Origin: Candidatus Moraniibacteriota bacterium
GTDB taxonomy: Bacteria > Patescibacteriota > Minisyncoccia > Moranbacterales > GCA-2747515
Direction of reading: 5' to 3'
Assembly: GCA_046116545.1 (NCBI GenBank)
Contig: CP175956.1
Coordinates: 160,276-224,275, forward strand
DNA length: 64,000 bases
Part shown: one piece after another, positions 7,453 through 63,669 of the stretch
How the letters are laid out: every line of letters begins with the position of its first letter
Position numbering within the stretch: the first letter of the stretch is position 1
Notes under the pieces: model-generated
What the model saw: the letters and a program-made list of their open reading frames with translations, nothing else
Database searches by the model: none
Told to the model about the DNA's origin: nothing
Made by a program: the position numbers and the translations under genes

Positions 7453-8100
7453 TTATGCAGTAAATTTACTAACCAACTGCTTAACTGAATCTTCACTTAC
7501 AATCAAATATTCTGAATTCAAAACATCATATACATTTAACTGATTTGTTTCTATAGTATTTAATCTATCAATGTTACGAGCTGCAATATGACTACCTTTT
7601 TCAGTAGCAGAGAATCCTATCATCATACTTTTATTCAAATCCAAGCCTTTTATCATTGTAGCAACTGTTTTAGTCTTGCCATCTTCAATTTTCAATGAAT
7701 CTATCACACGTAGCTTATCTGCTCTAACTTTTTCAGACAAGGCTATCAAAAGTGCTTTCTGTTTCATTTTTTCATTGATTAATTTTTTGAAATTTCGATT
7801 TTTTAATGGTCCAAAAGTTATACCACCACCACGCCAGATAGGATTACGTATTGATCCTGTACGAGCATTACCTGTTCCTTTTTGCTTCCAAGGTTTTTTA
7901 CCACCACCACGTCTATCTGATCGTGTTTTTGTATGTGCGCTACCGCTTCTTCTATTTGCAGATTGGGCAACAAAAACTTGGTGTACTAAAACATCATTCT
8001 TTTCGATTCCAAAAACAGCATCATCTAGCGAAATATCACCTGACTTCTCTCCTTTTATATTGTATACATCTATCTTTGTCATAATATTCTTTAAAATCAA
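7453..8100 (-). CDS. rplD: 50S ribosomal protein L4
   Basis: RRSGSAHTKTRSDRRGGGKKPWKQKGTGNARTGSIRNPIWRGGGITFGP. Confidence 0.9.
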   Translation of the reverse strand: MILKNIMTKIDVYNIKGEKSGDISLDDAVFGIEKNDVLVHQVFVAQSANRRSGSAHTKTRSDRRGGGKKPWKQKGTGNARTGSIRNPIWRGGGITFGPLKNRNFKKLINEKMKQKALLIALSEKVRADKLRVIDSLKIEDGKTKTVATMIKGLDLNKSMMIGFSATEKGSHIAARNIDRLNTIETNQLNVYDVLNSEYLIVSEDSVKQLVSKFTA

Positions 8101-8106
8101 ATTTAT

Positions 8107-8700
8107 CTATGCGCTTACTATTTCAACTATACGACCAGCAACACCAGGAACAGCTCCTTTTATTGCTATTGTATTTGTCTCTTTATCAACAGCAACAATT
8201 TTCAAACCTTGTGCTGTGGACAGATTACCTCCCATTCGTCCAGCCATTTTCTTTCCCTTTAATACATGTTGTGGATATGCACTACCAATTGATCCTCCAG
8301 AACGAAGTACATGTCTATGTCCATGAGTAGCAGGACCTCCTTTAAATCCATGTCTTTTCACAACACCTTGGAAACCTTTAGCTTTACTAATCGCAGATAC
8401 ACTTACTACATCGCCAACTTCAAACACATCAGCAGAAACAGTATCATTTTTTCTGTAATCATCTATATTGTTAACACGAAATTCTCTTGTATATTTAACG
8501 TTTTTTGTTTTATCAACAGAAAGTCTAACAGCGCTGTATCCATCACGCTCTTCATTCCTTATCAAGTCAATAGTGTTTGGAACAACATTAACAAGCGTCA
8601 CATTTTGAGCGCCATCTTCATTATATATTGTTGTCATCCCTGATTTCTTCCCTAAAACAAATTTCATAATATGTAAAATTATATATTCTAAATTTTTCAA
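8107..8700 (-). CDS. rplC: 50S ribosomal protein L3
   Basis: GKKSGMTTIYNEDG...FQGVVKRHGFKGGPATHGHRHVLRSGGSIG. Confidence 0.9.
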   Translation of the reverse strand: MKNLEYIILHIMKFVLGKKSGMTTIYNEDGAQNVTLVNVVPNTIDLIRNEERDGYSAVRLSVDKTKNVKYTREFRVNNIDDYRKNDTVSADVFEVGDVVSVSAISKAKGFQGVVKRHGFKGGPATHGHRHVLRSGGSIGSAYPQHVLKGKKMAGRMGGNLSTAQGLKIVAVDKETNTIAIKGAVPGVAGRIVEIVSA

Positions 8701-8937
8701 ATAAAAAATGGCCTTAAAACTAAGCCAGAATTATTTTAAATTCTTCTATACTATTGTACAGAAAAACTTTTTATTTGTCAAGACTCTTCTTGAAATGACT
8801 AAATAAAAACTATCTAGCTCGCTTAGTATCTTACATTTTTATATTAGTAAGACTTTAACGAAACACTATTTTAATACCAAAACTAATAAATAAATAAAAA
8901 CTATTTATATATTAATTTTAAATTACTAACATGAGAC

Positions 8938-8961
8938 ATAAACTAGATAATTCTAGTTTAT
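8938..8961 (-). promoter_or_regulatory. Perfect 10-bp-stem hairpin in the 270-bp S10-L3 spacer (possible attenuator or RNA-processing element)
   Basis: ATAAACTAGA-TAAT-TCTAGTTTAT lies immediately 3' of the S10 stop on the minus strand; it is not followed by a clean U-tract. Confidence 0.4.
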
Positions 8962-8971
8962 GCTAAACAAA

Positions 8972-9310
8972 CTACATTTTAACTTCAATACTTACACCAG
9001 CCGGTAAATCAAGATTTGTCAAATCCTCAATAGTTTTTGGTGAGGGATTGATAATATCGATCAAACGCTTATGTGTACGCATTTCGTATTGCTCGCGTGC
9101 AGTTTTATGCACAAAAGTAGACTTGTTTACAGTCATTTTTTTAATTTGTGTTGGTAACGGCACTGGACCAGAAATTTGAGCTCCTGTCCTTGCTGCTGTT
9201 TCAACAATTTGTTTTGCAGACTTATCAATAACCTTATTGTCGTACGCCTTTATTTTGATACGTACTCTAGTTGCTGCTTCTTCTTTCTTAGCCACCACGA
9301 AATAAAACAC
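8972..9310 (-). CDS. rpsJ: 30S ribosomal protein S10
   Basis: RIKIKAYDNKVIDKSAKQIVETAARTGAQISGPVPLPT...HKRLIDII. Confidence 0.9.
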   Translation of the reverse strand: MFYFVVAKKEEAATRVRIKIKAYDNKVIDKSAKQIVETAARTGAQISGPVPLPTQIKKMTVNKSTFVHKTAREQYEMRTHKRLIDIINPSPKTIEDLTNLDLPAGVSIEVKM

Positions 9311-9390
9311 TTAATAAATTACTTCCCACAAAAATGAGAGAAGGGATGACTTTAACAAGATGTTAAAGTCATCCACTTCTTTCTTTTTGA

Positions 9391-10608
9391 TTATTTTACG
9401 ATTTTTGTTGCTACACCAGCACCAACAGTTCGTCCACCTTCACGGATTGCAAATCGCATTCCTTCTTCCATAGCAACTTCAGAACCAAGTCGCACTGTCA
9501 AAGTGATTGTATCACCAGGCATTACCATCTCTGTTCCTTCTGGCAAAATAACTTCACCAGTTACGTCAGTTGTTCGGATATAAAATTGTGGTTTGTAACC
9601 TTTGAAAAATGGAGTATGTCGTCCACCTTCTTCTTTTGTAAGAATATATACTTCACATTCAAATTCTACATGTGGAGTAATACTTCCAGGCTTTGCAAGC
9701 ACTTGTCCTCGCTCTACATCTTCTTTCTTTGTTCCACGAAGCAAGATTCCAGCATTATCACCAGCCTCACCATGATCAAGATTTTTATTGAACATTTCGA
9801 TTCCAGTAACTGTAGTTACTTGAGTATCACGAAGTCCTATGATTTCAACTTCATCATTTAGATTTAGTTGTCCACGTTCGATTCGCCCTGTTACAACTGT
9901 TCCACGACCTTCGATTGAGAAAATATCTTCAATAGGCATTAGGAATGGTTTTTCTGTATCACGTTCTGGAGTAGGAATCTTATCATCAAGAGCATCTAAC
10001 AAATCAAGCATTGGTTTTGCATCAGCATCATCAGGACTAGTTGTTTCAAGAGCCTTAATTGCGCTACCACGAACGATTGTTGCATTTTCTCCATCAAATT
10101 CATATTTTGTAAGAAGTTCACGAACTTCCTCTTCTACCAACTCTACTAACTCTTCATCATCAACTTGGTCAGTTTTGTTAATAAATACAACGATTTCTGG
10201 TACACCAACTTGTCTAGCAAGTAGAATGTGCTCACGAGTCTGTGGCATAGGTCCATCAGTAGCACTTACTACCAAGATAGCACCATCCATTTGTGCAGCA
10301 CCTGTAATCATGTTTTTAATATAATCAGCATGTCCTGGACAGTCAACGTGCGCATAATGACGTTTTTCTGAATTGTACTCACAGTGAGCTGTAGCAATAG
10401 TTATACCACGCTCTCTTTCTTCTGGAGCATTATCAATTTCATCAACATTCTTTTTTTCTGCAAGACCTTTCATAGAAAGTACGTGCAATAGTGCAGCAGT
10501 TGTAGTTGTCTTACCATGATCAACGTGACCAATTGTTCCCACGTTTACATGCGGTTTACTACGATCAAAATCTTCAGCCATATCTTTTGTTTTGTGCTTT
10601 GTATGCAA
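9391..10608 (-). CDS. tuf: Elongation factor Tu
   Basis: [18 protein letters not shown]...DCPGHADY...NKTD; the true start may be the internal MAEDF (10581). Confidence 0.95.
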
Positions 10609-26867: not shown

Positions 26868-28700
26868 TTATTGCAAAGCACCCGATTGATATTGCCACAA
26901 TTCAAAGTATTTTCCTTTCTTTTCAAGTAATTCTTCATGTGTACCATCTTCTACAATTTTACCACCATCAAATACAATAATTCTATCCATTTGTTTCAAT
27001 GTACTTAATCTATGTGCAATTACGATTGTTGTTCTTCCTTTCATTAATTCCTCAAGTGCTTCTTGGATAAGTTTTTCTGAATGTGAATCTAATGAACTCG
27101 TTGCTTCATCCAATACTAAAATTGGCGATTTCTTTAACATTGCACGTGCAATCATTACACGTTGCTTTTGTCCACCCGAAAGCTTCACACCACGCTCCCC
27201 AACCAATGTCTCAAACTCCTTGGGAAAACTATTAATAAACTCTAATGCATGTGCTCGTACAGAAGCCTCTATTATATCATTTTTACTTGCTTGTACATTA
27301 CTATATTTGATATTCTCTTCTAAAGTTCTATGAAATAACAATGCTTCTTGTGGCACATATGCAATAGCACTACGTAAATCATCTTGGCGAATATTCTTAA
27401 TATCATGCCCATCAATTATTATTTGTCCTGATTCCAAATCCATAAATCGTAACAATAAACTCACAAATGTAGATTTTCCCTCACCCGATTCACCCACAAG
27501 TCCAATTTTTTGTCCTGAAGAAATCTCTAATGACAATTGCTTAAAAACTGAGCGTTCCTTATCATCCTCATAATGAAAGTCTACATTATCAAAAATAATA
27601 TCACCTTTTTTAATTTCAACTTTCCCAGCATTAGCATTATCTACTATTTCATATGGTATGAATATTTCTTCTAATCCCTCTTTTAATTGTCCATATTGTT
27701 CCATAAATCTATTGAATGTTGCTCCCATAAAAACCAAATCACCCACTAACCGTGTCGACATCACAATTGACATGACCACAATGCCCAATCCTATTTGTTG
27801 CATCTCCCATAACCGCAACATACCAAATACCACCATAAATAACATAACTACAGACATAGCTGAGTTAATTGTTACTACTGTTTCAAAATACCACCATGTT
27901 TTCAAATGCCAAAATCTATGATTTTCAATATACTCTTTAATATTATTTATTTCAAAAGTAGTTTGCACATTCTGTTTAATTGCCATTACATTAGTGAGAT
28001 TGTCTACAATATTACCGCGTAATGAAGATGCTTTGTCTGCACGTTTTTTTGAATAATTAGCCATTTTTCGTGAAGCTGCAATATTGAAAATAAGAAATAT
28101 TACGATAAAACTTGCAAAGATAACACCAAGCCACACATTAAATATGAAAGCCAAAATGCAAAAAATTACAAATTTTGACGCCATTCGTAAAAAATCCCAA
28201 AACAACATCGGAAAAATTGCTTCTACGCTTCTGGCAATATTTGAAACTTTACTAGATAATTTTCCAACCAATCTACCAGAAAAATATGTATAGCTGTGTT
28301 TAATTAAATAATTAAATGTAATTTGAAAAGAATACGCTTCTAGACGTGTTGTCACATAACTACCCAAAAAACCACTAATGCGCCAAAATAGAAAACTAAT
28401 TGCAAACACACTTATCAATAATCCTGCAAAATGATATACGTCTGCCATATCATCGCCAACAGTCATTGTATTTAATGTATCTACCAATTGCCCCAAAAAA
28501 TAAATTACTCCACTGACAAAAACCTCTGATACTACGACCAATGCCATTATAATAATAATTTGCAATCGATATTTTTGTGCTACAAAAAATAAAAATCTGA
28601 ACGGCTTATATTGAAATTCTGAAAAATTAATTTTTTTTTCTTTTGTCTTCATACTAAAACTTTTTTTACTTCTATGAAATATTAAATGATCTGTATTCAC
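26868..28700 (-). CDS. ABC transporter, fused permease and ATPase (MsbA-like exporter)
   Basis: Six-TM N-terminal domain; GESGEGKST is Walker A; LSGGQKQR is the ABC signature; the true start may be the internal MKTKEKK (28652), which would avoid the overlap. Confidence 0.85.
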   Translation of the reverse strand: MNTDHLIFHRSKKSFSMKTKEKKINFSEFQYKPFRFLFFVAQKYRLQIIIIMALVVVSEVFVSGVIYFLGQLVDTLNTMTVGDDMADVYHFAGLLISVFAISFLFWRISGFLGSYVTTRLEAYSFQITFNYLIKHSYTYFSGRLVGKLSSKVSNIARSVEAIFPMLFWDFLRMASKFVIFCILAFIFNVWLGVIFASFIVIFLIFNIAASRKMANYSKKRADKASSLRGNIVDNLTNVMAIKQNVQTTFEINNIKEYIENHRFWHLKTWWYFETVVTINSAMSVVMLFMVVFGMLRLWEMQQIGLGIVVMSIVMSTRLVGDLVFMGATFNRFMEQYGQLKEGLEEIFIPYEIVDNANAGKVEIKKGDIIFDNVDFHYEDDKERSVFKQLSLEISSGQKIGLVGESGEGKSTFVSLLLRFMDLESGQIIIDGHDIKNIRQDDLRSAIAYVPQEALLFHRTLEENIKYSNVQASKNDIIEASVRAHALEFINSFPKEFETLVGERGVKLSGGQKQRVMIARAMLKKSPILVLDEATSSLDSHSEKLIQEALEELMKGRTTIVIAHRLSTLKQMDRIIVFDGGKIVEDGTHEELLEKKGKYFELWQYQSGALQ

Positions 28701-29694
28701 TATACTCTGTAATTAAACTTATTGCACGAGCTAGTTTATCACTATCATGACGGATAAATGCTCGTGTATGAGCAAGTGCATCTCCATTAGTGGCTTTTAT
28801 TTTTTCTTTTCTAAGTAAATCGCCTTCTACAATTCTATGGTTCTTATTGTCTTTATATTTACACAAAACCAATGAGTCTTTTCCTTCTTGCTTTTCATAT
28901 TTAGCAATCATACTTTTATGTGGTTTTTTAGAATTATAGACTACAAAATCAACTCTATTTTTGCCTATTAATTTCTCTATATTTTTCACATAATCAGCTA
29001 CTGTAAAATTATCAGTTTGACCATATTTATTTGTAAGAGGTGCTACAAAAATAACTTTTGATTTTGTTTTTTTGATTGCATTTTTTATTCCACTAACTAA
29101 TAAATTTGGCACAATACTTCCATAATGATCACCAGGTCCTATTATTATAAAATCAGCATCATTTATTGCCTTAACAGCCCGCTTATTTGCTCTTACAGTT
29201 TTTGATAATCGCACTTCATGTATACCTGTTTGCCTAACTTGTTCATTATCATCCAACTCTTTTTCGCCCACAATTATTCGTCCATCATTTAACTTTATAG
29301 TAAGACGCATATCATCTTCACTCACAGGAACAACAGAACCTTTCACATTTAATATTTCAATAGCCTCAATTATTCCATCAGAAAAACTTCCGTTGATTTT
29401 TTCTAAAGCTGACAGAAAAAGATTTCCAAAATTATGACCTTTTAAATCACCGTTATCAAAACGATAGTTCATAAGCTCTCGTAATTTATCACTTGAGTCC
29501 GACAAGGCCACAAGACATTGTCTTACATCTCCTGGAGGTAAAACTCCCAGTTCATCTCTAAGTTTTCCCGTGGATCCACCATCATCAGCCATAGTAACAA
29601 TTGCTGTAAGATCATATTGATAATTCTTTAATCCTGACAACAAAGTGAATGACCCCGTCCCACCACCAATTGTAACAATTTTTTTATTTTTCAT
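28672..29694 (-). CDS. YvcK/CofD-family (UPF0052) protein
   Basis: VTIGGGTGSFTLLSGLK...AIVTMADDGGSTGKLR. Confidence 0.85.
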   Translation of the reverse strand: MKNKKIVTIGGGTGSFTLLSGLKNYQYDLTAIVTMADDGGSTGKLRDELGVLPPGDVRQCLVALSDSSDKLRELMNYRFDNGDLKGHNFGNLFLSALEKINGSFSDGIIEAIEILNVKGSVVPVSEDDMRLTIKLNDGRIIVGEKELDDNEQVRQTGIHEVRLSKTVRANKRAVKAINDADFIIIGPGDHYGSIVPNLLVSGIKNAIKKTKSKVIFVAPLTNKYGQTDNFTVADYVKNIEKLIGKNRVDFVVYNSKKPHKSMIAKYEKQEGKDSLVLCKYKDNKNHRIVEGDLLRKEKIKATNGDALAHTRAFIRHDSDKLARAISLITEYSEYRSFNIS

Positions 29695-29859
29695 GATTTA
29701 GTTATTACATAATGCTTTATATTATTACACTACTCTAACATAAAATTTACTTTAATGCTTTTAGTTTGTTGACAAAAAACAAGTTTTATGTAATACTACT
29801 AATTCAGTTTTTTAAATAGGTACTAACTACCTAAATAACAATACAAGGAGAACAAGCTG

Positions 29860-30369
29860 ATGAAAAAGGGAAATGTACGTTTAAAAAAGAAGACTGCTAA
29901 AAAAATTGTTGATTTTGCCATTGCTATTGCAGATGCATTGGGCATTTCTGGATCTATTGCCGTTGTTGATACTGATAATAATTTCATTGATGGTATACTA
30001 TATGGTCATGCACGTCCTATGACATACGCCATTGCGACAAATAAAGCAGCTCTCTCAGGCTATACTGGTGCTCGCACTGGAACTACTGCCCAACAAATTG
30101 CTTCTGGTGAACGCACATTGGAACTGTATGGTATTGATCCAGAAATGAATGTTCCTTTTCCGGGAGGTTGTCCAATTTACACAAAAAAAGGCATCCTCAT
30201 TGGAGGAGCTGGATTTTCTGAACAAACTGGCATCACCGATGAAAGAATTATATCTGCAGCTATTGAAGCATGTGGTTTTCTTTCTGATACACCTGCAATG
30301 ACTGATATTTCTGAGAAGCTTATCCAAAAGGCTGTCAAGAAAGTAAAGAAAAAACTGAAGAAAAAATAA
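29860..30369 (+). CDS. GlcG/DUF336 (heme-binding HbpS-like) protein
   Basis: IAVVDTDNNFIDGILYGHARPMTYAIATNKAALSGYTG; SD AAGGAGAA upstream. Confidence 0.7.
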   Translation: MKKGNVRLKKKTAKKIVDFAIAIADALGISGSIAVVDTDNNFIDGILYGHARPMTYAIATNKAALSGYTGARTGTTAQQIASGERTLELYGIDPEMNVPFPGGCPIYTKKGILIGGAGFSEQTGITDERIISAAIEACGFLSDTPAMTDISEKLIQKAVKKVKKKLKKK

Positions 30370-30457: not shown

Positions 30458-31141
30458 TTAATTTAGAAATTCTTCAATTCTTGTCTGAGCAATTTCTAAA
30501 TCTTCTGGTGAACCTATTGATTGCCATTTTTTTGTTGTAACTACTTTTGTTTTGTATTTTGGATACATGGATACCAATGTTTGTGGTAATCCATATTCTC
30601 TTTCTGAAATTCTTACCATTGGTATATCAAGATATTTCTGTGATAACATGTATGCTCCAGTATTCACAAGTCCATCTTTCTTTCCATGTGGTCTTTCTAT
30701 CACATCTGTTAAATCACTGTTCGTATCAATGTCTACTAATCCAAATTGCTCCGCATCATTTGTTTCATATGCCAATAATGATTGTTCATATTTCATCAAT
30801 TTATTTAAATCTTTTTTATCATATAAATCATCTCCCATGATAACGAGAAAATTATTTTTTACAATATCTTTTGTTAAAGCTATTGCACCAGCTGTTCCAT
30901 TAAATTCCACTTGCTTAATATAATGAATTTTTCGATTATCAAACACATCTCCAAAATAATCAATTATTTGATTACTCAAATATCCAACCACTAAAACAAC
31001 ATCCGTTATTTCATCTGGTAATAGTTCAATGCTATATGCCAATTTTGGACTATCTTTAATTTTAAGCATTGGCTTTGGACAATTTTGGGTTAACTCCCCC
31101 ATCCTAGTTCCAAGTCCAGCCACGAGAATTACTGCATACAT
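30458..31141 (-). CDS. Sugar-phosphate nucleotidyltransferase
   Basis: AVILVAGLGTRMGELTQNCPKPML is an NTP-transferase motif. Confidence 0.8.
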   Translation of the reverse strand: MYAVILVAGLGTRMGELTQNCPKPMLKIKDSPKLAYSIELLPDEITDVVLVVGYLSNQIIDYFGDVFDNRKIHYIKQVEFNGTAGAIALTKDIVKNNFLVIMGDDLYDKKDLNKLMKYEQSLLAYETNDAEQFGLVDIDTNSDLTDVIERPHGKKDGLVNTGAYMLSQKYLDIPMVRISEREYGLPQTLVSMYPKYKTKVVTTKKWQSIGSPEDLEIAQTRIEEFLN

Positions 31142-31181
31142 ATAATATAGTTTTAAAATGTAATAAATATAATTATATCAT

Positions 31182-31209
31182 AAAAAAACAGGCTTTCACC
31201 TGTTTTTTT
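31182..31209. terminator. Bidirectional rho-independent terminator
   Basis: AAAAAAA-CAGGCTTTCACCTG-TTTTTTT. Confidence 0.8.
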
Positions 31210-31240
31210 ATGACTCCAGTTATAAAAATTGTAATCATGT

Positions 31241-32536
31241 TTATGGTCTTGTCTCAATAATCCTACCACTAGAACAATCTGCATTTGAATTACATGTACT
31301 TGAACATTGATTTAGATTTGATGCTGTCAGTGGAGTTGATTGACATGTCCCTTGAGCGTTACATTCTTTTTGTGAACACATTGTTGATATTGTCAGTGGT
31401 TTGTCAGTCTCACCTGGACATGGTGGAGTACTACTATCTTCACATCCAGGATCTGGATCTGGAGTCGGTTTTATATAACACTCTGCAGGATACGTATTAG
31501 TTCCTGATGCTACAAATATTTCTTTGTCTACATCACCTGTACAAACATGGGTTTTCACTATTGCATTTGTTGATGGATCTGTTGAATCTATATCACAACA
31601 TATCTCAGATGTAGTTGGATCATTACACACAACTGATACATTTGTTGTTTGATCATTTAAATTTTCTTTTAAATATACATTTGCACTGTATTTAATTAAA
31701 TTTCCTGTTAAGCAAGTTGGTGCTGAACAATCTACATAGTCACCCACAGTACTAGCTCTACCCAATAAATGAAAATAATCATGTGCACATGTCCAATTCC
31801 ACTTTCCAGTGTTTGTATTAAATGTCACTAACTCATTTACTGTATTACTTGCAGCACATTGATTACTTTCAACTTCTGCTTTAGTATTTATTTCATTTGT
31901 TTCACTATTACTACTTCCACATACTGAATCTGGCTTTAACTGTGATGCTGAACATAATCCTGAATCAGCTCCTCCATGTTGTCCACTACAAGTCCATGTT
32001 ACTGTTTGTTCTGGAGCTGGAAAACTTACATTTGATGGATCTCCCGCTGTGCATTGATCTGCTCCATATACAGATGCACCATATGGATATTCCTTACCAT
32101 TTACAGCTGAGTTGCATTCACCTGGAATTGCACATGATTGCGTGTTACAAGATGTACTATTTCCACATAAATCTTCTTTTGTACCACCTCCGCAAGTTTC
32201 ACTACAAGCACCATAACTTCCACAGCTTTTCACAAACTTAATGATTGGAGAATTAACACAAGACCAATAATAAGTACTTCCACTACCAGTCATATATGAC
32301 CAAGCAAGATTAGCTGAATGAGCATTGTAATAGTTTTCTAGTGTTTGTTTTGCACTATCAAAATCAACAGTAATAGTCTGATTCCAATTCGTCATTCCTA
32401 ATGCTGAGCAAAATCCTCCATGATTTGAACCTAAGCAAGTTGCTTGTGCTGATACTGCTGTCGCATCTGAGTTTTTTATAATAATTCCAACACTTAACAC
32501 AACTAAAATTAAACTTATTCTTATAATATTATTCAT
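31241..32536 (-). CDS. Secreted cysteine-rich protein (431 aa), TSP1-like motif
   Basis: Signal peptide; about 45 Cys; CSETCGGG motif; recurring YYWSC, VTWTC and WNWTC modules. Confidence 0.75.
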   Translation of the reverse strand: MNNIIRISLILVVLSVGIIIKNSDATAVSAQATCLGSNHGGFCSALGMTNWNQTITVDFDSAKQTLENYYNAHSANLAWSYMTGSGSTYYWSCVNSPIIKFVKSCGSYGACSETCGGGTKEDLCGNSTSCNTQSCAIPGECNSAVNGKEYPYGASVYGADQCTAGDPSNVSFPAPEQTVTWTCSGQHGGADSGLCSASQLKPDSVCGSSNSETNEINTKAEVESNQCAASNTVNELVTFNTNTGKWNWTCAHDYFHLLGRASTVGDYVDCSAPTCLTGNLIKYSANVYLKENLNDQTTNVSVVCNDPTTSEICCDIDSTDPSTNAIVKTHVCTGDVDKEIFVASGTNTYPAECYIKPTPDPDPGCEDSSTPPCPGETDKPLTISTMCSQKECNAQGTCQSTPLTASNLNQCSSTCNSNADCSSGRIIETRP

Positions 32537-32555
32537 ATAATCTAACTACTATTAA

Positions 32556-33776
32556 CTATTTATTTAACGAATTAATCATTTCAACAATATCTTTATCATG
32601 TATCATATTTTTATATGGACCATCTTTGCCTTTTTGTAAGGCAATAACTATCATTGCCATTGTAGTTTCATTCATGCCTTCCATGGCCTTTAATAGATGT
32701 TCTTTTGATTTTTCTGTCTGTCCATTCAATGCCTGTGATATTGATAAATAATAATTTAATCGTGAACGAATTATGATTCGTTGTTGCGGCATCAAAGTAA
32801 TATCTCCTTCTATTAATTCAATGGCTTTGTCAAAGGTTTTAATAGCATTATCAAATTCATTTATTTCCAAATACGCAAATCCCAACCATTCAACTGGAAA
32901 AACTTGTTTTGGATAATTTTTTGAAATTTTTATTAAATTAATAATTGCATCCTCCTTATCATTTGTAAATAAAATTTTATTTTTCTCTAACTCGACCTGA
33001 GATAGCATAAATGATGGATCTATTTTTAGAGCTTTCTCAAAACTGATTTTGGACTTATCTATATCTTGGTTTTCGAAATCAATAACGCCTAATGAATGAT
33101 AATCTCCAGCAACAGCACTGATATTATCCACAGGTAGCTTAATTATTTTTTCTAAGATTTTACGAGCATTAGCCATCCTGTCTGTATTCATATAAATCCT
33201 CGCCAGATTACGCATTACTGTTCTGTTGCTATCATCAATTTCATATGCTTTGTCATAAAACTCTTCCGCCACGTCTGTCTGTCCTTTCAAATCAAAAGTA
33301 TGCCCAATCCAATTATACGTATCTGCTGTTTCCTCAAAAGTTAGCGCTGTATTGTAATTCAGAAGAGCATCTTCAAACATATTCTGAATTTCATAAGAAT
33401 ATCCCATAAGTCTATAAGCTTTTGCATTTTCAGGATCTTTCTCCAACACAACGAGAAGAATTTCTTGAGCTTTCACAGCATTCTCTTCTTCTTCAAATTT
33501 ATGAGAGCCTTTAACCAATAAAACCTCTGCTTTTGCAAGTAATAAATCTATATTATCTGCATCATCTTCTAAAAGGTCTTTAATCTTCACAATAGCCTCA
33601 TCAAATTTATTATTTTTCAAATCATGTGAAATACTGTCATTTATTACAATATTACCCGTTCCTTGATTATTAAGATTTTTTTCTTTTGATTTATTCACAA
33701 AAGAAAAACCTACAATAATGCCAAATAATATGATTGCTATTCCTGAAATTATAATTGCCTTCTTTTTATCTTCCAT
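32556..33776 (-). CDS. Membrane-anchored TPR-repeat protein
   Basis: N-terminal TM helix, then multiple TPR-like repeats (AKAYRLMGYSYEIQNMFEDALLNYNTAL and similar). Confidence 0.75.
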   Translation of the reverse strand: MEDKKKAIIISGIAIILFGIIVGFSFVNKSKEKNLNNQGTGNIVINDSISHDLKNNKFDEAIVKIKDLLEDDADNIDLLLAKAEVLLVKGSHKFEEEENAVKAQEILLVVLEKDPENAKAYRLMGYSYEIQNMFEDALLNYNTALTFEETADTYNWIGHTFDLKGQTDVAEEFYDKAYEIDDSNRTVMRNLARIYMNTDRMANARKILEKIIKLPVDNISAVAGDYHSLGVIDFENQDIDKSKISFEKALKIDPSFMLSQVELEKNKILFTNDKEDAIINLIKISKNYPKQVFPVEWLGFAYLEINEFDNAIKTFDKAIELIEGDITLMPQQRIIIRSRLNYYLSISQALNGQTEKSKEHLLKAMEGMNETTMAMIVIALQKGKDGPYKNMIHDKDIVEMINSLNK

Positions 33777-33821
33777 ATTTTTATTAATTATTTATTTTAT
33801 CTTTTTATTATATCACAACGC

Positions 33822-33862
33822 AAAAAAAACAAAAACCTATCACAAAAATTATGATAGGTTTT
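33822..33862 (-). terminator. Rho-independent terminator after the KH gene
   Basis: On the minus strand: ACCTATCATAATTTTTGTGATAGGT followed by TTTTGTTTTTTTTG. Confidence 0.75.
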
Positions 33863-33899
33863 GCTGAAATTATTCTTATATAATTTCAAATAAAATTCT

Positions 33900-34223
33900 C
33901 TAGATTTCGATATCTCCGACAACTTCATCCAAAGTTTTCTGTTCGCTTTCTTCCTTTTTTGGAGCTGGGCGTTCAGAACCTTCTGGTTCGTTAATTTTTA
34001 GGTTTACTCGTGCATTGTTGCGTGCTCCTACAACTCTCAAAAGAGTTCGAAGTGCTTTTGCAGTAGAACCTTCGCGACCGATAACCATACCCATATCATC
34101 TTGATTTACATCAAGAGTTATAAGTACACCCATTTCGTCAACTTTACGATTAACTTTTACATCATCAGGATTGTCAACAAGCATTTTTACTACTTCTTCA
34201 ACAAATTGTGCATCACGTTCCAT
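33900..34223 (-). CDS. KH-domain RNA-binding protein (KhpA-like)
   Basis: VDNPDDVKV...GMVIGREGSTAKALRTLL. Confidence 0.85.
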   Translation of the reverse strand: MERDAQFVEEVVKMLVDNPDDVKVNRKVDEMGVLITLDVNQDDMGMVIGREGSTAKALRTLLRVVGARNNARVNLKINEPEGSERPAPKKEESEQKTLDEVVGDIEI

Positions 34224-34367
34224 AATGTATGACTGCTTAACTGATTTAATACGGACAGTTTGACTATCTTGGCGCTTACGACCTCGTCTTTTTAACGCTC
34301 ATTTTGTGATTGTCATTCCTCCTAATATAACTATACAATATTTCAAAATACTCTGCAACTACTATAA

Positions 34368-34748
34368 TTACATCTCCAATTTCCAAAGTCCATGCAAATT
34401 ACAGTATGCATATATTTTAACTTTTTCTACAGTACTTTCAAACATTGCTTCTGGACTATCACCTGGTACTAAAAATACTGTTTTACTCTTATTATCTGTC
34501 ACAAGTGTTATCCATTCTATATAATGTTCCTCACTCATTGGATGCAATACTGCACCTATTTGAACATGAATACCTTCTTCTGTACGATTTACAAACGGTA
34601 CATGCTTTTCTATAGATGCATCCTCTACACCAGCCTCAACTAACACCATAGATTTGCTACAACAAGATAATTCACCACCCGCTGCATGATTAACTGAAAC
34701 AATATTTCCGCATACATTGCATTTATACAATTGATTTCTTTTTGTCAT
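34368..34748 (-). CDS. dfx: Desulfoferrodoxin (2Fe superoxide reductase)
   Basis: YKCNVCGNIVSVNHAAGGELSCC is the desulforedoxin domain; HVPFV...H...CNLHGLWK is the SOR centre. Confidence 0.88.
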   Translation of the reverse strand: MTKRNQLYKCNVCGNIVSVNHAAGGELSCCSKSMVLVEAGVEDASIEKHVPFVNRTEEGIHVQIGAVLHPMSEEHYIEWITLVTDNKSKTVFLVPGDSPEAMFESTVEKVKIYAYCNLHGLWKLEM

Positions 34749-34774
34749 AATTATACTAATAATTAATTAATTTT

Positions 34775-34798
34775 AATGACCCTATTAAATAGGTCATT
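34775..34798. promoter_or_regulatory. Hairpin between the exonuclease gene stop and the dfx promoter (possible terminator or stabiliser)
   Basis: AATGACCCTATT-AAATAGGTCATT; on the minus strand it is followed by TTAATTAATTATTAGTATAATT ATG, so a TATAAT box sits 1 nt before the dfx ATG. Confidence 0.45.
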
Positions 34799-35331
34799 TA
34801 TTTTGAAAGTTTAATATATAAATCTCTCATAAGCTTAGCATCATCTAGTGCGTTGTGTACACGATAATCATCTAAATTAATATCAAACTGTGCATAGAAA
34901 TTCTTTTTTTCATCTCCTATTTCACGAGCAGGCGTTAACCCAATTGCAAAAAGCATTGATGCAAAATCTATTGGTATTCTATGTATTGGTTCCTTTTCTC
35001 CTGCAAATAATTTATGCCAAAAAGCCATGTCATACTGATTTACAGTTGCAACAAGATGTGGTTCACTATTTCCACAAAATTCTCTAATTTTTTGTCTTGC
35101 TTCTTCACGGGATATTTTTTTTCCATTTAAATATGGTACAACATTTTCAATAACCCAATCATTAACATGATTTTTATCATATTCCAATTCAAAATACATT
35201 TCACGACTTCCATCAAGTGAAACCATTCCAATGGCCATCAAATTATCATTAGCAATATCATGACCTGTAAATTCAGCATCAAAAAATACCACATCATCTG
35301 AAAACGGTTGTAAGAACTTTTCATTTTCCAT
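34798..35331 (-). CDS. DEDDh 3'-5' exonuclease (DnaQ/oligoribonuclease-like)
   Basis: FFDAEFTG is Exo I; HNALDDAKLM is Exo III. Confidence 0.8.
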   Translation of the reverse strand: MENEKFLQPFSDDVVFFDAEFTGHDIANDNLMAIGMVSLDGSREMYFELEYDKNHVNDWVIENVVPYLNGKKISREEARQKIREFCGNSEPHLVATVNQYDMAFWHKLFAGEKEPIHRIPIDFASMLFAIGLTPAREIGDEKKNFYAQFDINLDDYRVHNALDDAKLMRDLYIKLSK

Positions 35332-35380
35332 TATATGAAATATTTTTAACCAATTACAATGTCAGTATAACACAAAGACT

Positions 35381-35716
35381 CTACAAAATCTCAAATTTTA
35401 TAATTTTCACTGGACTATTTTTATCAACTTTACAATTATAGTATTTTTCGAAAGTCTGATACATTTCCTCATCTGAATCATATCTCTCATGTCCCTCCCA
35501 GTCATTTTCAGTCAAATCACAAAATTTAACTTCATTTGTTTCTAATATTTTTATACGAGCAAATTCTTGACCATCTTCCCAAATAACAAAAACTACTTCA
35601 TCATCTACTGAAAGATTTTTATTATCAAAAAGTCTCCACGTAGTTGTTTTTTTATTAACTAAGATTAATTCACTTAATTTTTGACGAAATTTTAAAGTTT
35701 TCATATTATCTAACAC
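35381..35716 (-). CDS. ASCH-domain protein
   Basis: TTTWRLFD...EDGQEFARIKILE is a PUA-like ASCH pattern. Confidence 0.65.
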   Translation of the reverse strand: MLDNMKTLKFRQKLSELILVNKKTTTWRLFDNKNLSVDDEVVFVIWEDGQEFARIKILETNEVKFCDLTENDWEGHERYDSDEEMYQTFEKYYNCKVDKNSPVKIIKFEIL

Positions 35717-36965
35717 TATGTTTCTCTCTTGTCCTTATCCAATCCTTTGATTCACTTATGCCTAAGTTTGGCTTATTAATAAGTTCATTTAAAATATGCC
35801 ATCTTCTTTTTTTCTCACTCCACTCGATTGTATCTGGCATTTCTTTTGATGCTACTGTACCAGGTCTTTCAGAGTAACAGCCTATGAAAGCCCTAACAAA
35901 GCCAACTTTTTTTAATAATTCTATACTTGCCTGAAAATCTTCTTCTGTCTCTCCAGGAAATCCAACTATTATATCTGTTACAAAATCGACACCTTCAACC
36001 TTATTTTTAATTTTATCTATTAATTTCAAAAAACTATCTGATGTATACCAACGATTCATCTTTTTAATAATCTTATCACTTCCTGATTGAACTGGTAGAT
36101 GAAGTAATCTATCAATATTTTTATTCTCTGCTATTACATCTATAAGTTCATCTGAAAAATCCCACGGATTTGAACTAGTAAATGTAACAGTTTTCACACC
36201 TTTTACCTTAGAAACTTCATCTAATAGATATGGAAATAATGTTGGTATACGAGTTCTTCCTAAATGATTTACCATGATAGGCTCCACCGTCTCACCACCG
36301 GGAAGTTCATAAAAGTTCTGTTCACTATCTTTTTTTGCCAAAACTAAGTCAGAGCCATATGAGTTAACATTTTGCCCAAGCAAAGTAATTGAATTAAAGC
36401 CATCTTTAACCAACTGATTAACTTCCTGCATAACATCGGCATATGGTCTTGAAATTTCTTTTCCTCTAGCAAAAGGCACTATACAAAATGCACAATGATT
36501 ATTACAACCATTCGAAATTACAACCCATGCATGTTTTTTATCTACTCTTTCTGGTATATATTCGAAACCGACTTCTTCTATTGGCATAAGTTCCACATCT
36601 GGAATTCTTTTTTCTAGTTTCTTTTTCATTTTACCACTTGGCTCACGAGCAGCAGCTCCCACAATACATCCAGTCAATATAATTTTCTGTTCTTTACCAT
36701 CCTTTTCAGCTTTCTTTTGTAAGTTTCTTATATATCCATATACACGCTCTTCTGCTTTGTCACGTATCATGCAAGTATTTATCACAATTAAGTCAGTCTC
36801 ATCTTCAGAATCAACCTGATTAAATCCTCGTGATTTATAATATCCAACTAATCGTTCAGAATCAGCAACATTTTGTTGACAGCCAAACGTTTTGACAAAA
36901 AAATTCTTCATAAATTTACTCTTTCTAAAACTGTTTATTACATGTTTATCCTTGACACTATACAA
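35706..36965 (-). CDS. MiaB-family radical-SAM tRNA methylthiotransferase
   Basis: FVKTFGCQQNVADSE...CNNHCAFC radical SAM...TRAM-like C-terminus; the likely true start is MKNFF (36911). Confidence 0.85.
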   Translation of the reverse strand: MYSVKDKHVINSFRKSKFMKNFFVKTFGCQQNVADSERLVGYYKSRGFNQVDSEDETDLIVINTCMIRDKAEERVYGYIRNLQKKAEKDGKEQKIILTGCIVGAAAREPSGKMKKKLEKRIPDVELMPIEEVGFEYIPERVDKKHAWVVISNGCNNHCAFCIVPFARGKEISRPYADVMQEVNQLVKDGFNSITLLGQNVNSYGSDLVLAKKDSEQNFYELPGGETVEPIMVNHLGRTRIPTLFPYLLDEVSKVKGVKTVTFTSSNPWDFSDELIDVIAENKNIDRLLHLPVQSGSDKIIKKMNRWYTSDSFLKLIDKIKNKVEGVDFVTDIIVGFPGETEEDFQASIELLKKVGFVRAFIGCYSERPGTVASKEMPDTIEWSEKKRRWHILNELINKPNLGISESKDWIRTREKHSVR

Positions 36966-58944: not shown

Positions 58945-61900
58945 CTATCTCATCTTTATATCGCCTTTTAATTTTATATCTCCTTTCAATTTCACTTGTC
59001 GAGGATCTGATATTGTAGTTACTGTTGTAGTAAAATTTGTTTCATTCCCATATCCTGTTCCTCCACTATTTATTGCTTTTGCTCTTATGAAATATGTTGT
59101 ATTTGGAGATAGTCCTACTAGTACACATGAATAAGTTCCTTCTGAATCAATTCCTGCACTACATTCGTTTGTATATGTTCCACTTATAATTCCCCATTCC
59201 ATAAATCTTTGTGGATTTTCAGATCCATCATCTATCACATTTCCATTTCCTGTTGCTGTTGTTGAATTTATGGATGTTGTATTTTGTGTTGATATAGTTG
59301 GTGCACTCAGCGGACAGTCAAGTCCTGCATCATTTATTGTCCAGCTATATGTTGATATGATATTTGATCGCTCTGTTGCACTATTACAATAATTTGCTGA
59401 TGAATCTAGTTGCACATTATTTTGAAGTGTTTGTGATTCCCATCCTATTAGTGTGGCATCATAGATTGTTGTTGAGAGTCCTGAATTTACAAACATCCCA
59501 AGCATATCAGTAACACTTCCTATTTGCCATGAGCCCATATTTTGATTAAATGCGGATGCACCATAAAACACATATGACATATTTGTAACAGATGATGTAT
59601 CCCATGAACTTAGATTTTGATTAAATGCATCTGTAAAAGAAAATAATTCAGACATATTTATCACACTACCTACATCCCAAGAGCTTATGTCTTGATTAAA
59701 TACGTCTGCATTAGTAAACATCCTATTCATATTTGTTACACTATTTACATCCCAAGAACCTATATTTTGATCAAATGCTCCTGCATTAGAAAACATCTCA
59801 TACATGCTTGTAACATTGCTTATATCCCAAGAACTTATATCTTGATTGAACATATTAGTACCTGTAAATAGTCTATCCATATTTATTACATTACTCGTGT
59901 TCCAAGAGCTTATGTCTTGATTAAATGAATTTGCACCATAAAACATTCCTGATATATCTGTAACATTACTTATATCCCAAGAGCTTATGTCTTGGTTGAA
60001 TGTATTAGTAATTGCAAACATGTGTGACATGTTTATTACTGATGAAGTATCCCATAAACTTATATCTCCATTAAATGCTGGTGTATAGTAAAACATATAT
60101 GACATATTTGTAACAGAGGATGTATTCCAAGAACTTAAATTACCGTTAAACGAAAATGCTTCTCTAAAAGCTTCCCACAATGACGTCACCGAAGATAGAT
60201 CAGGAGTATCTGTAAAAGTACCTATCATATTAATACATCCTAAAAAAGACCTTTCCATCGAAGTCCAAATTCCTATTCCCCATTGATTGATATCTAAAAG
60301 CTTTTCTCTATCTCCTGTGTTATTGAAGTAAATTCTAGGAAATCCAGTTTTTAATCCTGTATTATCTTTTATTCTTATAGTATAAGTTCCTGCAGCTCCA
60401 TAGTTACATGTATAATTTCCTGTTTGAGCTGTTGCGTCATCTGAACCATCATTATCACAATCTATATTATAGTTATAGCCGCCTCCTGTTGTTGGTATAG
60501 TAAATTGTGTATCTGATGAGCTTCCTGTGTTATCTGTTTTTACTGTTATTACAAAATCATTTTCTGGTGGTGTTGAACAATCCAACCCGGCATCGTTTAT
60601 CGTCCAACTATATGTTGATATAATATTAGCTCTTTCTGTTGCACTATTACAATAATTTGCTGATGAACCTAGAGTTACTCCATTTTGTAATACTTGTGAT
60701 TCCCAACCTATTAATGTTGCATCATAATTTGCTGTTGATAAATTTGTCGACAAAAATATATTTGTCATATTTGTTACATTGGCAACATTCCAGGTACTTA
60801 AATCTTGATTAAATGATGTTGAACGAAATACATTACTCATATCCATCACAGATGAAGTATCCCAAGAACTAACATTTCCATCAAATGCAGATACAACAAA
60901 CATGCTATTCATATCTGTTATAGATGAGGTATTCCAAAGACTTAGATTTTGATTAAAATTAGGTGCATTATAAAACATATACCTTGTACTCGTTACACTT
61001 GATGTGTCCCAAGAACTTATATCTCGATTAAATACAGATGTTCCATAAAACATACCACTCATATTTGTTACATTTGATGTGTCCCATGAGTTTACATCCC
61101 CATTAAATACTATTGCATTCCAAAACATAGAATTCATATCCGTTACTAACGACGTATTCCAGGAATCTAAGTCTTGATTAAATACAGAGTTATCAAAAAA
61201 CATATAACTCATATTAGTTACATTTGATGTATCCCATAAACCTATATCTTGATTAAAGATGGATGACATACCCGAAAACATCTGACTCATATTGGTTACA
61301 TTTGATGTGTCCCATGAAGTTATATCTTGATTAAATGAACTAGCATGTCTAAACATAGCCCTCATATCTGTTACTGCTGATATATCCAATGTACTTATAT
61401 CTTGATTAAATAAATCTGTATAGCTAAACATGGAGCTCATATCAGTTACTGCTGCAGTATTCCACGCAATTATATTATAATTAAATGCGTCTGCACCATA
61501 AAACATACTTGCCATATTTGTTACATTTGATGTGTCCCATGAAGTTATATCTTGATTAAATGCGATTGTGTCTGCAAACATGACGGACATATTTGTAACT
61601 GCAGATGTGTCCCAAGAACTTATATCTTGATTGAAAACTGGAGCATATCTAAACATATTATTCATATTGGTTACATTTGATGTGTCCCATGAAGTTATAT
61701 CTTGATTAAATGAAGTAGCTTCATAAAACATGTAACTCATATTTGTTATTGAAGACATATCCCAGTTATTTATATCCTGATTGAAAGAGTCTGTACCTCT
61801 AAACATTTGTGATAAATCCGTCACATTCGAAAGATTAGGTATATCTATAAAATTACCAACCATGTTGTTACACCCTGTAAAAGCTCTAAACATTGATATC

Positions 61901-63669
61901 CAAATTCCTGTTCCCCATTGATCTATTGATAAAAGTTTTTCTTTATCTCCTGCATCACTAAAATAAATCCTAGGAAATCCAGTACTAGCTCCTGAGTTAT
62001 CTTTTATTCTTACAGTATAAGTTCCTGCACTTCCGTAATTACATGTATAGTTCCCGGTTTGTCCTGTTGCCTCATCGCTTCCATCATTATCACAATCCAC
62101 ATTGTAATCATAGCCTACTCCAAATGTTGGTATTGTAAATTGTGTATCTGATGAGCTTCCTGTGTTATCTGTTTTTACTGTTATTACAAAATCATCTGTA
62201 GCTAGTGCTGGCATTACACATTGTTGATCTACTATTCCTCCGCTACTTATACTTCCACCGATTGAAATTGTTCCACCGCTGCCTAAACTTCCACCGTTTG
62301 AAATTGTTCCACCGTTTGAAATTGTTCCACCGCTGCCTAACTGAGGATTTGCACAACCTGTTGCAAAAGTTCCATCTGATTGAAGTTTTACTATATACAT
62401 ATCAAAACCACCTACGCCACCAGCATTTGTATATCCTGCAATTACATACCCCCCATCTAAAGTTTGAACTGCTGAATATGCTACTTCAGCATCAGCTCCA
62501 CCAATAGTCCTTGTTCCTCCTGAGCCAAATGTTGCATCTAATGCTCCTGTGCTTGTAAGTTTTGTTATATACATATCATAACTACCTGCACCAAAAGAAG
62601 TTGTATATCCTGCGATTACATATCCTCCATCTGAAGATTGAACTACCGAGTATGCATACTCGGTACCAGTGCCACCAATAGTTCTTGTTCCACCTGAACC
62701 AAATGTTGCATCTAATGCTCCTGTGCTTGTAAGTTTTGTTATATACATATCATAACCACCTGCACCAAAAGAATCTGTGATTCCTGCAATTACATATCCT
62801 CCATCTGAAGTTTGTATTATAGAAATTCCTGAATCAAAACCAGTGCCACCAATAGTTCTTGTTCCACCTGAACCAAATGTTGCATCTAATGCTCCTGTGC
62901 TTGTAAGTTTTGTTATATACATATCATAACCACCTGCACCAAAAGAACTTGTATATCCTACAATCATATACCCGCCATCTGAAACTTGTATTACAGAACT
63001 TGCTGAATCAGAACCTGTGCCACCAATAGTTCTTGTTCCTCCTGAGCCAAATGTTGTATCTAATGCTCCCGTACTTGTAAGTTTTGTTATATACATATCA
63101 TAACCACCTGCACCAAAAGAACTTGTATATCCTACAATCATATACCCGCCATCTGAAACTTGTATCACAGAACTTGCTAAATCAGAACCTGTCCCACCAA
63201 TAGTTTTTGTTCCTCCTGAGCCAAATGTTGTATCCAATGCTCCCGTGCTTGTAAGTTTTGCTATATACATATTACCGATACCATCACCAAAAGAACTTGT
63301 AAATCCTGCAATTATATACCCTCCATCTGAAGTTTGAGCTGCTGAATATGCATATTCAGCATCAGCTCCACCAATAGTTCTTGTTCCTCCTGAGCCAAAT
63401 GTTGTATCCAATGCTCCCGTGCTTGTGAGTTTTGTTATATACATATCATAACCACCTGCACCAAAAGAGTCTGTTCTTCCTACAACTACATGCCCACCAT
63501 CTGAAGATTCTATTACAAAAGATGCTAATTCAGCATCGGCTCCACCAATAGTCTGTGCAATAAACTCACCTGCCGCAGATACTTTTTGTGTTATAAAAAA
63601 GCTTAAAAATATCATCACCAAAAAAGATGCCGTTTTTTTATATAAATGCTTTTTGAAAAGATTATTCAT
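58945..63669 (-). CDS. Giant secreted/surface protein (1574 aa): delta-60 beta-propeller repeats, two tandem DUF285/BspA-type repeat modules, FN3
   Basis: Signal peptide; about 8 repeats of [12 protein letters not shown]...[31 protein letters not shown] (delta-60-like); Gly-rich linker; two modules each with an Ig-like prelude ([21 protein letters not shown]...DCDNDG) plus about 20 [20 protein letters not shown] repeats; C-terminal FN3-like domain. Confidence 0.85.
59290..62215. repeat. Nucleotide-level tandem duplication (~1.63-kb unit, two copies) inside the giant gene
   Basis: For example, 60340-60570 versus 61975-62205 are nearly identical, including a perfect 60-nt stretch gtaaattgtgtatctgatgagcttcctgtgttatctgtttttactgttattacaaaatcat. 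Confidence 0.8.
62380..63565. repeat. About 175-bp tandem repeats (delta-60 blade coding units) with long near-identical stretches
   Basis: Recurring ccaccaatagttcttgttcctcctgagccaaatgttg(c/t)atc(t/c)aatgctcc(t/c)gtgcttgtaagttttgttatatacatatcataac. Confidence 0.8.

Follow-up and report, generated by a model that had tools for sequence, protein, structure and literature searches.

What does a bacterium of the candidate phyla radiation (CPR; Patescibacteria) do with a strikingly cysteine-rich, putatively secreted protein, and is the membrane protein encoded beside it a partner or an incidental neighbor? CPR bacteria presumably live attached to other cells, but the attachment molecules identified so far are few, and the majority of CPR surface proteins lack annotation. 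The question is raised by a locus in a 64,000-nucleotide (nt) stretch of a Candidatus Moraniibacteriota metagenome-assembled genome (MAG) (contig CP175956.1, positions 160,276 to 224,275; hereafter the window, with coordinates counted from its first letter). We propose, with slightly better than even confidence, that the cysteine-rich protein and the adjacent tetratricopeptide repeat (TPR) protein make up a two-part cell surface attachment complex of the Moraniibacteriota.

The cysteine-rich open reading frame (ORF) spans 31241..32536 on the minus strand and encodes 431 amino acids (aa); an identical protein, ACKUBY_00990, is annotated as hypothetical on a 1.29-Mb contig of a Candidatus Moraniibacteriota MAG. 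An initial annotation, made from the sequence alone, had counted about 45 cysteines; the true number is 31, or 7.2% of residues, the highest value among the 42 window ORFs of at least 200 aa (median, 0.86%; second highest, 3.4%). Ser, Thr, Asn, and Gly are also abundant. Directly upstream, across a 19-nt gap, lies the gene for the TPR protein (32556..33776, minus strand), which the initial annotation had correctly named as a membrane protein: it has a single N-terminal transmembrane (TM) helix and exceeds the Pfam cut-offs of several TPR models (TPR_8, 83 bits; TPR_2, 83 bits; TPR_1, 72 bits; cut-offs, about 26 to 28 bits; E values, about 1e-24 to 1e-20) in four separate stretches. That annotation missed the invariant knot and tail at the C terminus of the cysteine-rich protein and the rule that a membrane partner is obligatory.

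The C-terminal knot family and its membrane partners

Fourteen further homologues of the cysteine-rich protein were recovered (30 to 49% identity; best E = 1e-59), in which Cys and Trp positions are conserved. Each is either unnamed or assigned to Patescibacteria; NCBI names one of them "thrombospondin type-1 domain-containing protein." The initial annotation had suggested that homologues be sought in CPR and epibiont genomes; nearly all family members are in Moraniibacteriota MAGs. Conservation in the 14 homologues and a signal-peptide-like N terminus confirm the ORF as real and support its description as a disulfide-rich, modular extracellular protein, with both export and disulfides predicted from sequence. 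The whole 431-aa protein has no sequence match in Pfam, NCBIfam, PADLOC, or the Protein Data Bank (PDB).

The homologues end in the pattern C..(R/K)xC(N/T)(A/S)xG(T/S)Cxx.P...C.S.CNS(N/D)ADC..GR(I/M/L)IET(R/K)P, followed by a stop. Across 12 sequences, 17 of the 50 columns of this C-terminal module are invariant, and the G, R, I, E, T, and P of the tail are each identical in all 12. Window aa 387 to 431 fit a knot of the form C-x4-C-x5-C-x12-C-x3-C-x5-C ending in GR[IML]IET[RK]P, and the stop codon directly follows IET[RK]P at every locus examined. No Pfam, NCBIfam, or PDB sequence matches the knot, and neither the family nor its C-terminal module is described in Pfam, in NCBIfam, or in the literature that we searched.

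An exhaustive search of 1.84 billion representative proteins with a profile of the C-terminal module gave only 81 matches, 70 of them at E ≤ 1e-10, which puts this rare family at about 80 clusters. Family members score 60 to 99 bits, their lengths cluster at about 400 to 630 aa and about 930 to 1,120 aa, and in members with the canonical tail the match reaches the last residue of the protein. Four candidates (P0062, P0082, P0087, and P0088) were rejected as a repetitive nonfamily match or as eukaryote-like proteins with CxSNADC-type repeats. The same profile in a word-indexed protein search returned two fragments only. Scanning 185,579 species genomes for the C-terminal domain identified 13 loci, 12 of them in Moraniibacteriota MAGs, with up to seven copies in one MAG; 241 million metagenome records yielded another 13 loci. 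The remaining genome locus (L007; DYDB01000001.1, a 388-kb contig labeled Micavibrio sp.) contains a TPR-B gene together with a family member, and its GC content of 37% resembles that of the CPR loci; the label is probably wrong or the contig misbinned, the alternative being transfer outside the CPR. A phage origin was rejected, as the domain was absent from the viral contigs searched.

Upstream of this constant end the family is very diverse. The last 235 or so residues can be aligned across all members, whereas the heads fall into separate groups, and the N-terminal parts include thrombospondin type 1 repeats (TSRs), W-x-C modules, Myxococcus-type Cys repeats, and others. A role as sortase substrates was rejected: the window protein ends at ...GRIIETRP-stop, a TM segment and basic tail are lacking after the motif at all loci examined, and a sortase is nearby at one locus only. 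There, a sortase fused to bacterial TSP3 repeats (L004, 4673..5683; Sortase, 3.6e-23; TSP3_bac, 2.8e-13) lies about 300 nt downstream of the gene for P0004.

At every family locus with upstream sequence, a membrane-anchored partner is encoded directly upstream of the cysteine-rich gene (spacing from an 8-nt overlap to a gap of about 37 nt) or is fused to it. The partners belong to several types. TPR-A proteins occur in the window and at L001/L014, the L001 partner being 70% identical to the window TPR protein and lying 5 nt upstream of the orthologue P0003. TPR-B proteins, only about 25% identical to the window TPR protein, occur at L011, L020/21, L023, L007, L028/29, L037, L038, L039/40, and L042; of these, L028/29 encodes P0011, a paralogue from the same genome as the window. 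N-anchored, beta-rich partners of about 380 aa are found at L022, L004/5, and L002/3, and at L008, L009, L013, and L041 the partner has a signal peptide that can be cleaved, then about 430 aa of MG2-like Ig arrays, and a TM helix at its C terminus. In fusions of about 1,000 aa (L010, L012, L015, L018, L035, and P0078), a signal peptide, an ectodomain, two TM helices, and the cysteine-rich part follow one another in a single chain; fusions account for about 25 of the 81 representatives, and weak similarity (E = 2e-5 and 3.6e-4) links their N-terminal halves with the C-anchored partners. In a prospective test on five unseen members (P0034, P0066, P0083, P0080, and P0074), all five had a TPR-B or C-anchored partner directly upstream. 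Partner type tracks the type of cysteine-rich head, not the tail. These results support a functional link between the TPR protein and its cysteine-rich neighbor rather than an incidental adjacency. At L042 (2262..6329 of the 1.55-Mb contig ctg97414l), one TPR-B gene precedes two tandem family genes encoding 424 and 442 aa, both ending in GRMIETRP, which suggests that a partner need not be limited to a single cysteine-rich protein.

The N-anchored partners share an anchor, M(E/Q)NKKx(A/G)III..VAV.LF..VAF.FLY, which in the 64-kb window and 237 kb of loci (301 kb) matched partner genes only; since the pattern was built from these same genes, the result shows its specificity and is not an independent discovery. 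In this anchor (window 33696..33776; L001, L004, L011, L020, L022, L023, L028, L038, and L042), a basic stretch and a small residue, M(E/Q)NKKx(A/G), stand directly before the helix beginning (I/V)II, an arrangement loosely like that of class III (prepilin-type) signal peptides but without Glu at +5. The orientation of the partners is clearest for the C-anchored type: because their signal peptides are cleavable, their ectodomains are certainly extracellular. Those TPR-B partners that were counted have eight cysteines each, several just past the TM helix, which suggests that their ectodomain is also outside. By analogy, the TPR domain of the window protein would likewise face outward.

The two window genes appear to form one transcription unit (33776..32556 plus 32536..31241). 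Its features, in the direction of transcription, are as follows.

About 33822..33865, minus strand: intrinsic terminator of the upstream KH-domain gene, found by scan, with a 14-bp stem and then a T-run
33807..33815, minus strand: extended -10 promoter-like element TGaTATAAT, read from the sequence, 31 nt 5' of the TPR start codon
32556..33776, minus strand: TPR partner, 406 aa, with the N-terminal anchor MEDKKKAIIISGIAIILFGIIVGFSFV at aa 1 to 27, a TM helix at about 33696..33758, and TPRs at about aa 54 to 340 (32757..33617)
31177..31214, minus strand: intrinsic terminator closing the two-gene unit, with a 17-bp perfect stem flanked by A and T runs

The first terminator (RNA fold, -16.1 kcal/mol; z = -6.2; 0 of 200 shuffles as stable) marks the 5' boundary of the unit, and a consensus scan also placed a promoter-like site at 33816..33787. 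From the 19-nt gap, the flanking terminators, and the extended -10 element, the pair would therefore be a discrete bicistronic unit. The initial annotation had placed a bidirectional terminator at 31182..31209 between the cysteine-rich gene and a convergent sugar nucleotidyltransferase gene. The strong hairpin is real (-21.7 kcal/mol; z = -7.7; 0 of 200 shuffles as stable), but the nucleotidyltransferase gene (30458..31141) is on the minus strand as well and thus in tandem; although the palindromic hairpin has A and T runs, nothing requires it to act in both directions.

Domain order and the thrombospondin type 1 question

The cysteine-rich protein is arranged as follows.

32441..32536, minus strand: predicted signal peptide, aa 1 to 32, in which a 14-residue hydrophobic core lies between a basic residue and an AxA site; the segment MNNIIRISLILVVLSVGIIIKNSDATAVSAQA, read from the sequence, precedes T, with predicted cleavage between AQA and T
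32228..32440, minus strand: N-terminal head, aa 33 to 103, with three cysteines (C34, C43, and C93), specific to the TPR-A subfamily
32114..32227, minus strand: degenerate TSR, aa 104 to 141, SCGSYGACSETCGGGTKEDLCGNSTSCNTQSCAIPGEC, recognized with a profile of orthologue TSRs
31715..32113, minus strand: two four-Cys W-x-C modules, aa 142 to 198 and 199 to 274, with the pattern C..(20)..C..(20)..W.[W]xC..(11-19)..C
31469..31714, minus strand: Ig-like beta-sandwich, aa 275 to 356, with six cysteines including a CC pair; start of the constant "stalk"
31394..31468, minus strand: Pro/Asp-rich linker, aa 357 to 381, PTPDPDPGCEDSSTPPCPGETDKPL, with a predicted local distance difference test score (pLDDT) of 53 to 70 and a length and composition that vary across homologues
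31244..31393, minus strand: family-defining C-terminal six-Cys knot and invariant tail, aa 382 to 431, TISTMCSQKECNAQGTCQSTPLTASNLNQCSSTCNSNADCSSGRIIETRP, then the stop

The N termini of all full-length homologues are comparable to the window signal peptide. The head is 58% identical to that of P0003 only, and a BLAST search with heads alone groups the window protein with P0003. An AlphaFold2 model from a 13-sequence alignment (mean pLDDT, 72.5) is confident over aa 110 to 360, including the W-x-C modules (80 to 93), and poor over aa 1 to 105 and the last seven residues. As to the repeated (Y/T/N)W(S/T)C modules of the initial annotation, the motifs do occur, at aa 90, 180, and 247, but only the latter two lie in the repeated four-Cys modules; YWSC at aa 90 belongs to the different N-terminal domain. 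In the alignment of homologues, W181, C183, C195, C206, W246, W248, C250, and C270 are invariant or nearly so, and the protein has no Trp beyond aa 248. W-x-C modules also stand in tandem in the Patescibacteria proteins P0006 and P0015, both of which lack the C-terminal domain. P0006 matches the cysteine-rich protein at E = 1.9e-36 over 31% of the query; a profile of the type 1 four-Cys repeats of P0006 and P0015 had no significant match on the window protein, the link to P0006 running through the type 2 module.

The likeness to thrombospondin noted in the initial annotation rested on a CSETCGGG motif, which is present at aa 111 to 118; with cysteines at 105, 111, 115, 124, 130, and 135, the segment packs six into about 40 residues. 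A direct check of this likeness was negative: Pfam TSP_1 did not match the window protein even at E ≤ 1, nor was the protein detected by a profile of the human TSP-1 repeats alone. The likeness emerges through the orthologues. At the position of window aa 99 to 141, P0004 (two copies), P0005, P0007, and P0009 contain the canonical TSR pattern (W/Y)GxWxxC(S/T/D)xxCGxGxxxR...C...CN..C, and Pfam TSP_1, TSP1_ADAMTS, TSP1_CCN, and TSP1_spondin match orthologue segments just below threshold (best, P0004 at 20.0 bits against a cut-off of 21.6; P0009 and P0005, E of about 5e-3 to 1e-2). A profile of the five canonical bacterial segments matched 13 distinct PDB sequences, all TSR proteins (thrombospondin-1 at 6e-12, CCN3, TRAP, F-spondin, CSP, BAI1 [deposited as vasculostatin-120], semaphorin-5A, and isthmin). 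This profile, from which the window was excluded, scored 20.7 bits on window aa 104 to 141 (E = 2.4e-8 for a single target), whereas the best of 2,000 shuffles of the window protein reached 2.6 bits. Eight columns are invariant across the seven aligned TSR segments. A TSR profile returned nothing in a word-indexed protein search.

The window copy has lost the hallmarks that its orthologues keep. The Trp ladder reads SCGSYG in the window against SWGAWG in orthologues, so that two Trp positions are now C and Y; P0004, P0007, and P0009 retain the ladder, and in P0005 a Y replaces the first Trp. The Arg layer is likewise lost, with TKED in place of TQSR or VQTR. By these profile comparisons, window aa 104 to 141 is a degenerate TSR, recognizable only via orthologues (transitive homology). 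The initial annotation had held that the ORF might be spurious if it lacked both TSP1 similarity and conservation; a TSR link and conserved homologues were found.

Set against the TSR family as a whole (Pfam TSP_1, PF00090; thrombospondin-1, properdin, F-spondin, and Plasmodium TRAP and CSP), the window segment has the CSxTCGxG core and six cysteines in about 40 residues of a putative extracellular modular protein, and its orthologues keep (W/Y)GxW, the core, and one Arg. It differs in lacking both the Trp and the Arg-bearing strand, in failing every Pfam TSP1 model, and in its host: the TSR is regarded as an animal-type adhesion module, secondarily acquired by apicomplexans (PMC3417536), and here it occurs in a CPR bacterium. 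Our literature searches found nothing relevant on thrombospondin in Patescibacteria or CPR bacteria, on cysteine-rich surface proteins of Patescibacteria, or on disulfides in Moranbacteria. The orthologues carry genuine repeats of the thrombospondin type, and the bacteria that encode them have very small genomes.

The cysteine-rich gene evolves faster than its surroundings. Between the window and the syntenic locus L001 (gene at 8001..9533), it is 40% identical, whereas ten flanking genes are 56 to 92% identical; one module has been gained or lost, and the Ig-like part is only 25% identical. The tails of the window protein and P0003 are of different subtypes, and the P0003 tail is closest to that of a paralogue in its own genome (L012). 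Because the tail subtypes of orthologues differ in this way, the pattern suggests recombination, mosaic evolution, or gene conversion among paralogues. Such module shuffling and rapid divergence are typical of host-interface proteins.

The gene order common to the window (33900..36965, minus strand, and 28672..30369) and L001 comprises genes for MiaB-like radical SAM, ASCH, RNase T-like, desulfoferrodoxin, KhpA-type KH, TPR, cysteine-rich, HbpS-like, and CofD-like proteins. The desulfoferrodoxin (superoxide reductase) gene is notable for so small a genome. The sugar nucleotidyltransferase gene (30458..31141, minus strand; Pfam NTP_transferase, 6.5e-25) was considered as part of the system and rejected: it lies on the same strand behind the strong terminator, has a TG-extended TATAAT promoter-like site of its own within that terminator's descending arm, and is absent from L001, an insertion or deletion unrelated to the cysteine-rich gene. 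Elsewhere in the window (58945..63669, minus strand), a 1,574-aa ORF with 11 DUF285 (BspA-type leucine-rich) repeats and DUF5122 beta-propeller repeats encodes a second very large putative surface protein.

A proposed two-part surface complex and its alternatives

What has been established here (how the genes and domains are arranged, how the family is distributed, the obligatory linkage to a partner, the fusions found in nature, and the rapid divergence) is the basis of the proposed attachment complex; export, disulfide formation, an outward-facing TPR domain, binding of the two proteins to each other, and adhesion enter it as predicted steps. The cysteine-rich protein would be exported through Sec and its signal peptide cleaved. 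Folding oxidatively, it would form a rod composed of the head, the decayed TSR, two W-x-C modules, the Ig-like sandwich, and the six-Cys knot ending in ...GRIIETRP. The TPR protein would be held by its one N-terminal membrane helix with the TPR solenoid exposed outside, and the partner ectodomain would retain the cognate cysteine-rich protein at the surface or help assemble it there. The constant knot and tail may dock to a factor common to all paralogues (wall, S-layer, or shared receptor), leaving the variable, fast-evolving modules to attach to a host cell or substrate. A stable physical association of partner and cysteine-rich protein is suggested because natural fusions occur. We infer an adhesive role from the TSR ancestry of the protein (TSRs are adhesive in animals and apicomplexans; PMC3417536), its Ig-like rod, and its evolutionary pattern.

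Several observations weigh against this proposal. The tail is constant whatever the partner type, so that the TPR domain probably does not recognize it and the two proteins would meet elsewhere. The total of 31 cysteines in the mature protein is odd, so that at least one must be free or in an interchain disulfide. The window TPR protein itself has no cysteines, and the charge around its TM helix is ambiguous as to topology. Finally, the family is tiny and known from metagenomes only.

A further-reaching version of the attachment proposal, to which we give well under an even chance, takes the six-Cys knot and GR(I/M/L)IET(R/K)P as a Moraniibacteriota-specific anchoring or sorting module. Together with receptors of interchangeable fold encoded in the same cassettes, it would constitute a CPR two-component display for host attachment, whose adhesive modules, TSRs included, are shared and possibly exchanged with eukaryotes. 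If so, the locus hints at contact between ultra-small bacteria and eukaryotic surfaces or matrix-like glycans, and a C-terminal module acting as an anchoring signal would be a new surface display mechanism in monoderm bacteria. The combination of membrane partner, cysteine-rich modular protein, and invariant C-terminal knot already provides a searchable signature for the candidate attachment apparatus of one CPR lineage.

The partner could instead be an extracytoplasmic folding or assembly factor that holds the unfolded cysteine-rich chain or delivers it to the wall or S-layer, the cysteine-rich protein being a structural envelope component; the likeness would be to TPR proteins of cytochrome c maturation (CcmH/CycH/NrfG) and of pilus or outer membrane assembly (PilW and BamD). 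The window TPR protein does exceed the cut-off of the TPR_CcmH_CycH model (58 against 42 bits), its best partial NCBIfam matches are PilW, PrsT, LapB, and NrfG (all below cut-off), the two genes are predicted to be cotranscribed, and 31 cysteines imply demanding folding. In the GMC8 MAG of the Moraniibacteriota, a membrane-anchored thioredoxin-like CPHC protein is also encoded about 460 nt downstream of one family member (L019, 1843..2223) and may be an extracytoplasmic disulfide oxidoreductase that acts on the cysteine-rich proteins. We nevertheless consider this role unlikely: three unrelated partner folds (TPR, beta-rich, and MG2-like Ig arrays) would all need to act as chaperones, and a transient chaperone would be a poorer match than a permanent complex for the covalent fusions, which occur at no fewer than five loci and make up about 25 of the 81 representatives. 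Less probable again is that the TPR domain serves as receptor for a free C-terminal ...GRIIETRP-COOH, retaining the secreted protein on the membrane. TPR domains elsewhere do read C termini, those of Hop binding EEVD and PEX5 binding the PTS1 tripeptide; moreover, TPR proteins are the commonest partner class, the tail is invariant (12 of 12 sequences) and stands at the extreme C terminus in members carrying it, and its modeled pLDDT below 50 would suit a free peptide. The same tail, though, accompanies non-TPR partners and occurs in fusions, so the TPR domain is probably not its recognizer. It is also common to up to seven paralogues per genome; identity between TPR-A and TPR-B is only about 25%; P0083, whose tail differs (..GGGGYIEETN), still has a TPR-B partner; and the type of partner goes with that of the head.

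A secreted toxin or bacteriocin, acting for example through the defensin-sized knot (6 cysteines in 35 residues), with the membrane protein conferring immunity, would account for a putatively secreted, cysteine-rich, fast-evolving, multicopy family beside a membrane protein. Cognate pairs should covary, whereas here the candidate toxic part is constant and the candidate immunity folds are diverse; effector and "immunity" protein can be fused in one chain; no Pfam toxin or PADLOC defense family was matched apart from a weak PADLOC match to the TPR; and the family was not found in the viral contigs searched. We regard this explanation as very improbable. As for a spurious or low-complexity ORF, for which the S/T/N/G-rich composition and the want of Pfam, NCBIfam, and PDB matches might speak, conservation across genomes refutes it: the best homologue match is at E = 1e-59, Cys and Trp positions are conserved, a syntenic orthologue exists at L001, aa 110 to 360 are confidently modeled, and the unit has defined terminators and a promoter-like element. 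Its probability is negligible.

Comparison with known systems

Among multirepeat TPR solenoids, the window partner resembles Hop, PEX5, NrfG/CcmH, and PilW, with the particular feature that it is encoded beside a protein with an invariant free C terminus. It differs from NrfG/CcmH and PilW in that its matches to the NCBIfam equivalog models are far below cut-off and no cytochrome maturation or pilus genes adjoin the window pair, and from Hop and PEX5 in that recognition of the tail is contradicted by non-TPR partners of proteins with the same tail. The C-terminal sorting and anchoring domains (LPXTG/sortase signals and type IX secretion system [T9SS] C-terminal domains) are also among the closest known systems.

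The closest functional analogue is found in the WxL/WxLIP (Csc) clusters of the Firmicutes Enterococcus and Lactobacillus. These occur in multiple copies in monoderm bacteria. The secreted WxL proteins that they encode vary in their N-terminal binding domains but share a constant C-terminal domain, and WxLIP, a membrane-anchored Ig-fold protein encoded alongside, binds them and stabilizes them on the surface (PMC10599100). The C-terminal domain described here is a six-Cys knot without WxL motifs or a Pfam WxL match, and most of its partners are N-anchored TPR proteins, which WxL clusters lack; WxLIP_HBD and WxLIP_PGBD each match one of nine partner sequences, below cut-off (E of about 4e-3 to 8e-3). 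The C-anchored partners, with their signal peptide, Ig-like arrays, and C-terminal TM helix, are nonetheless built as WxLIP is, and the overall logic of the proposed complex is that of known monoderm surface display.

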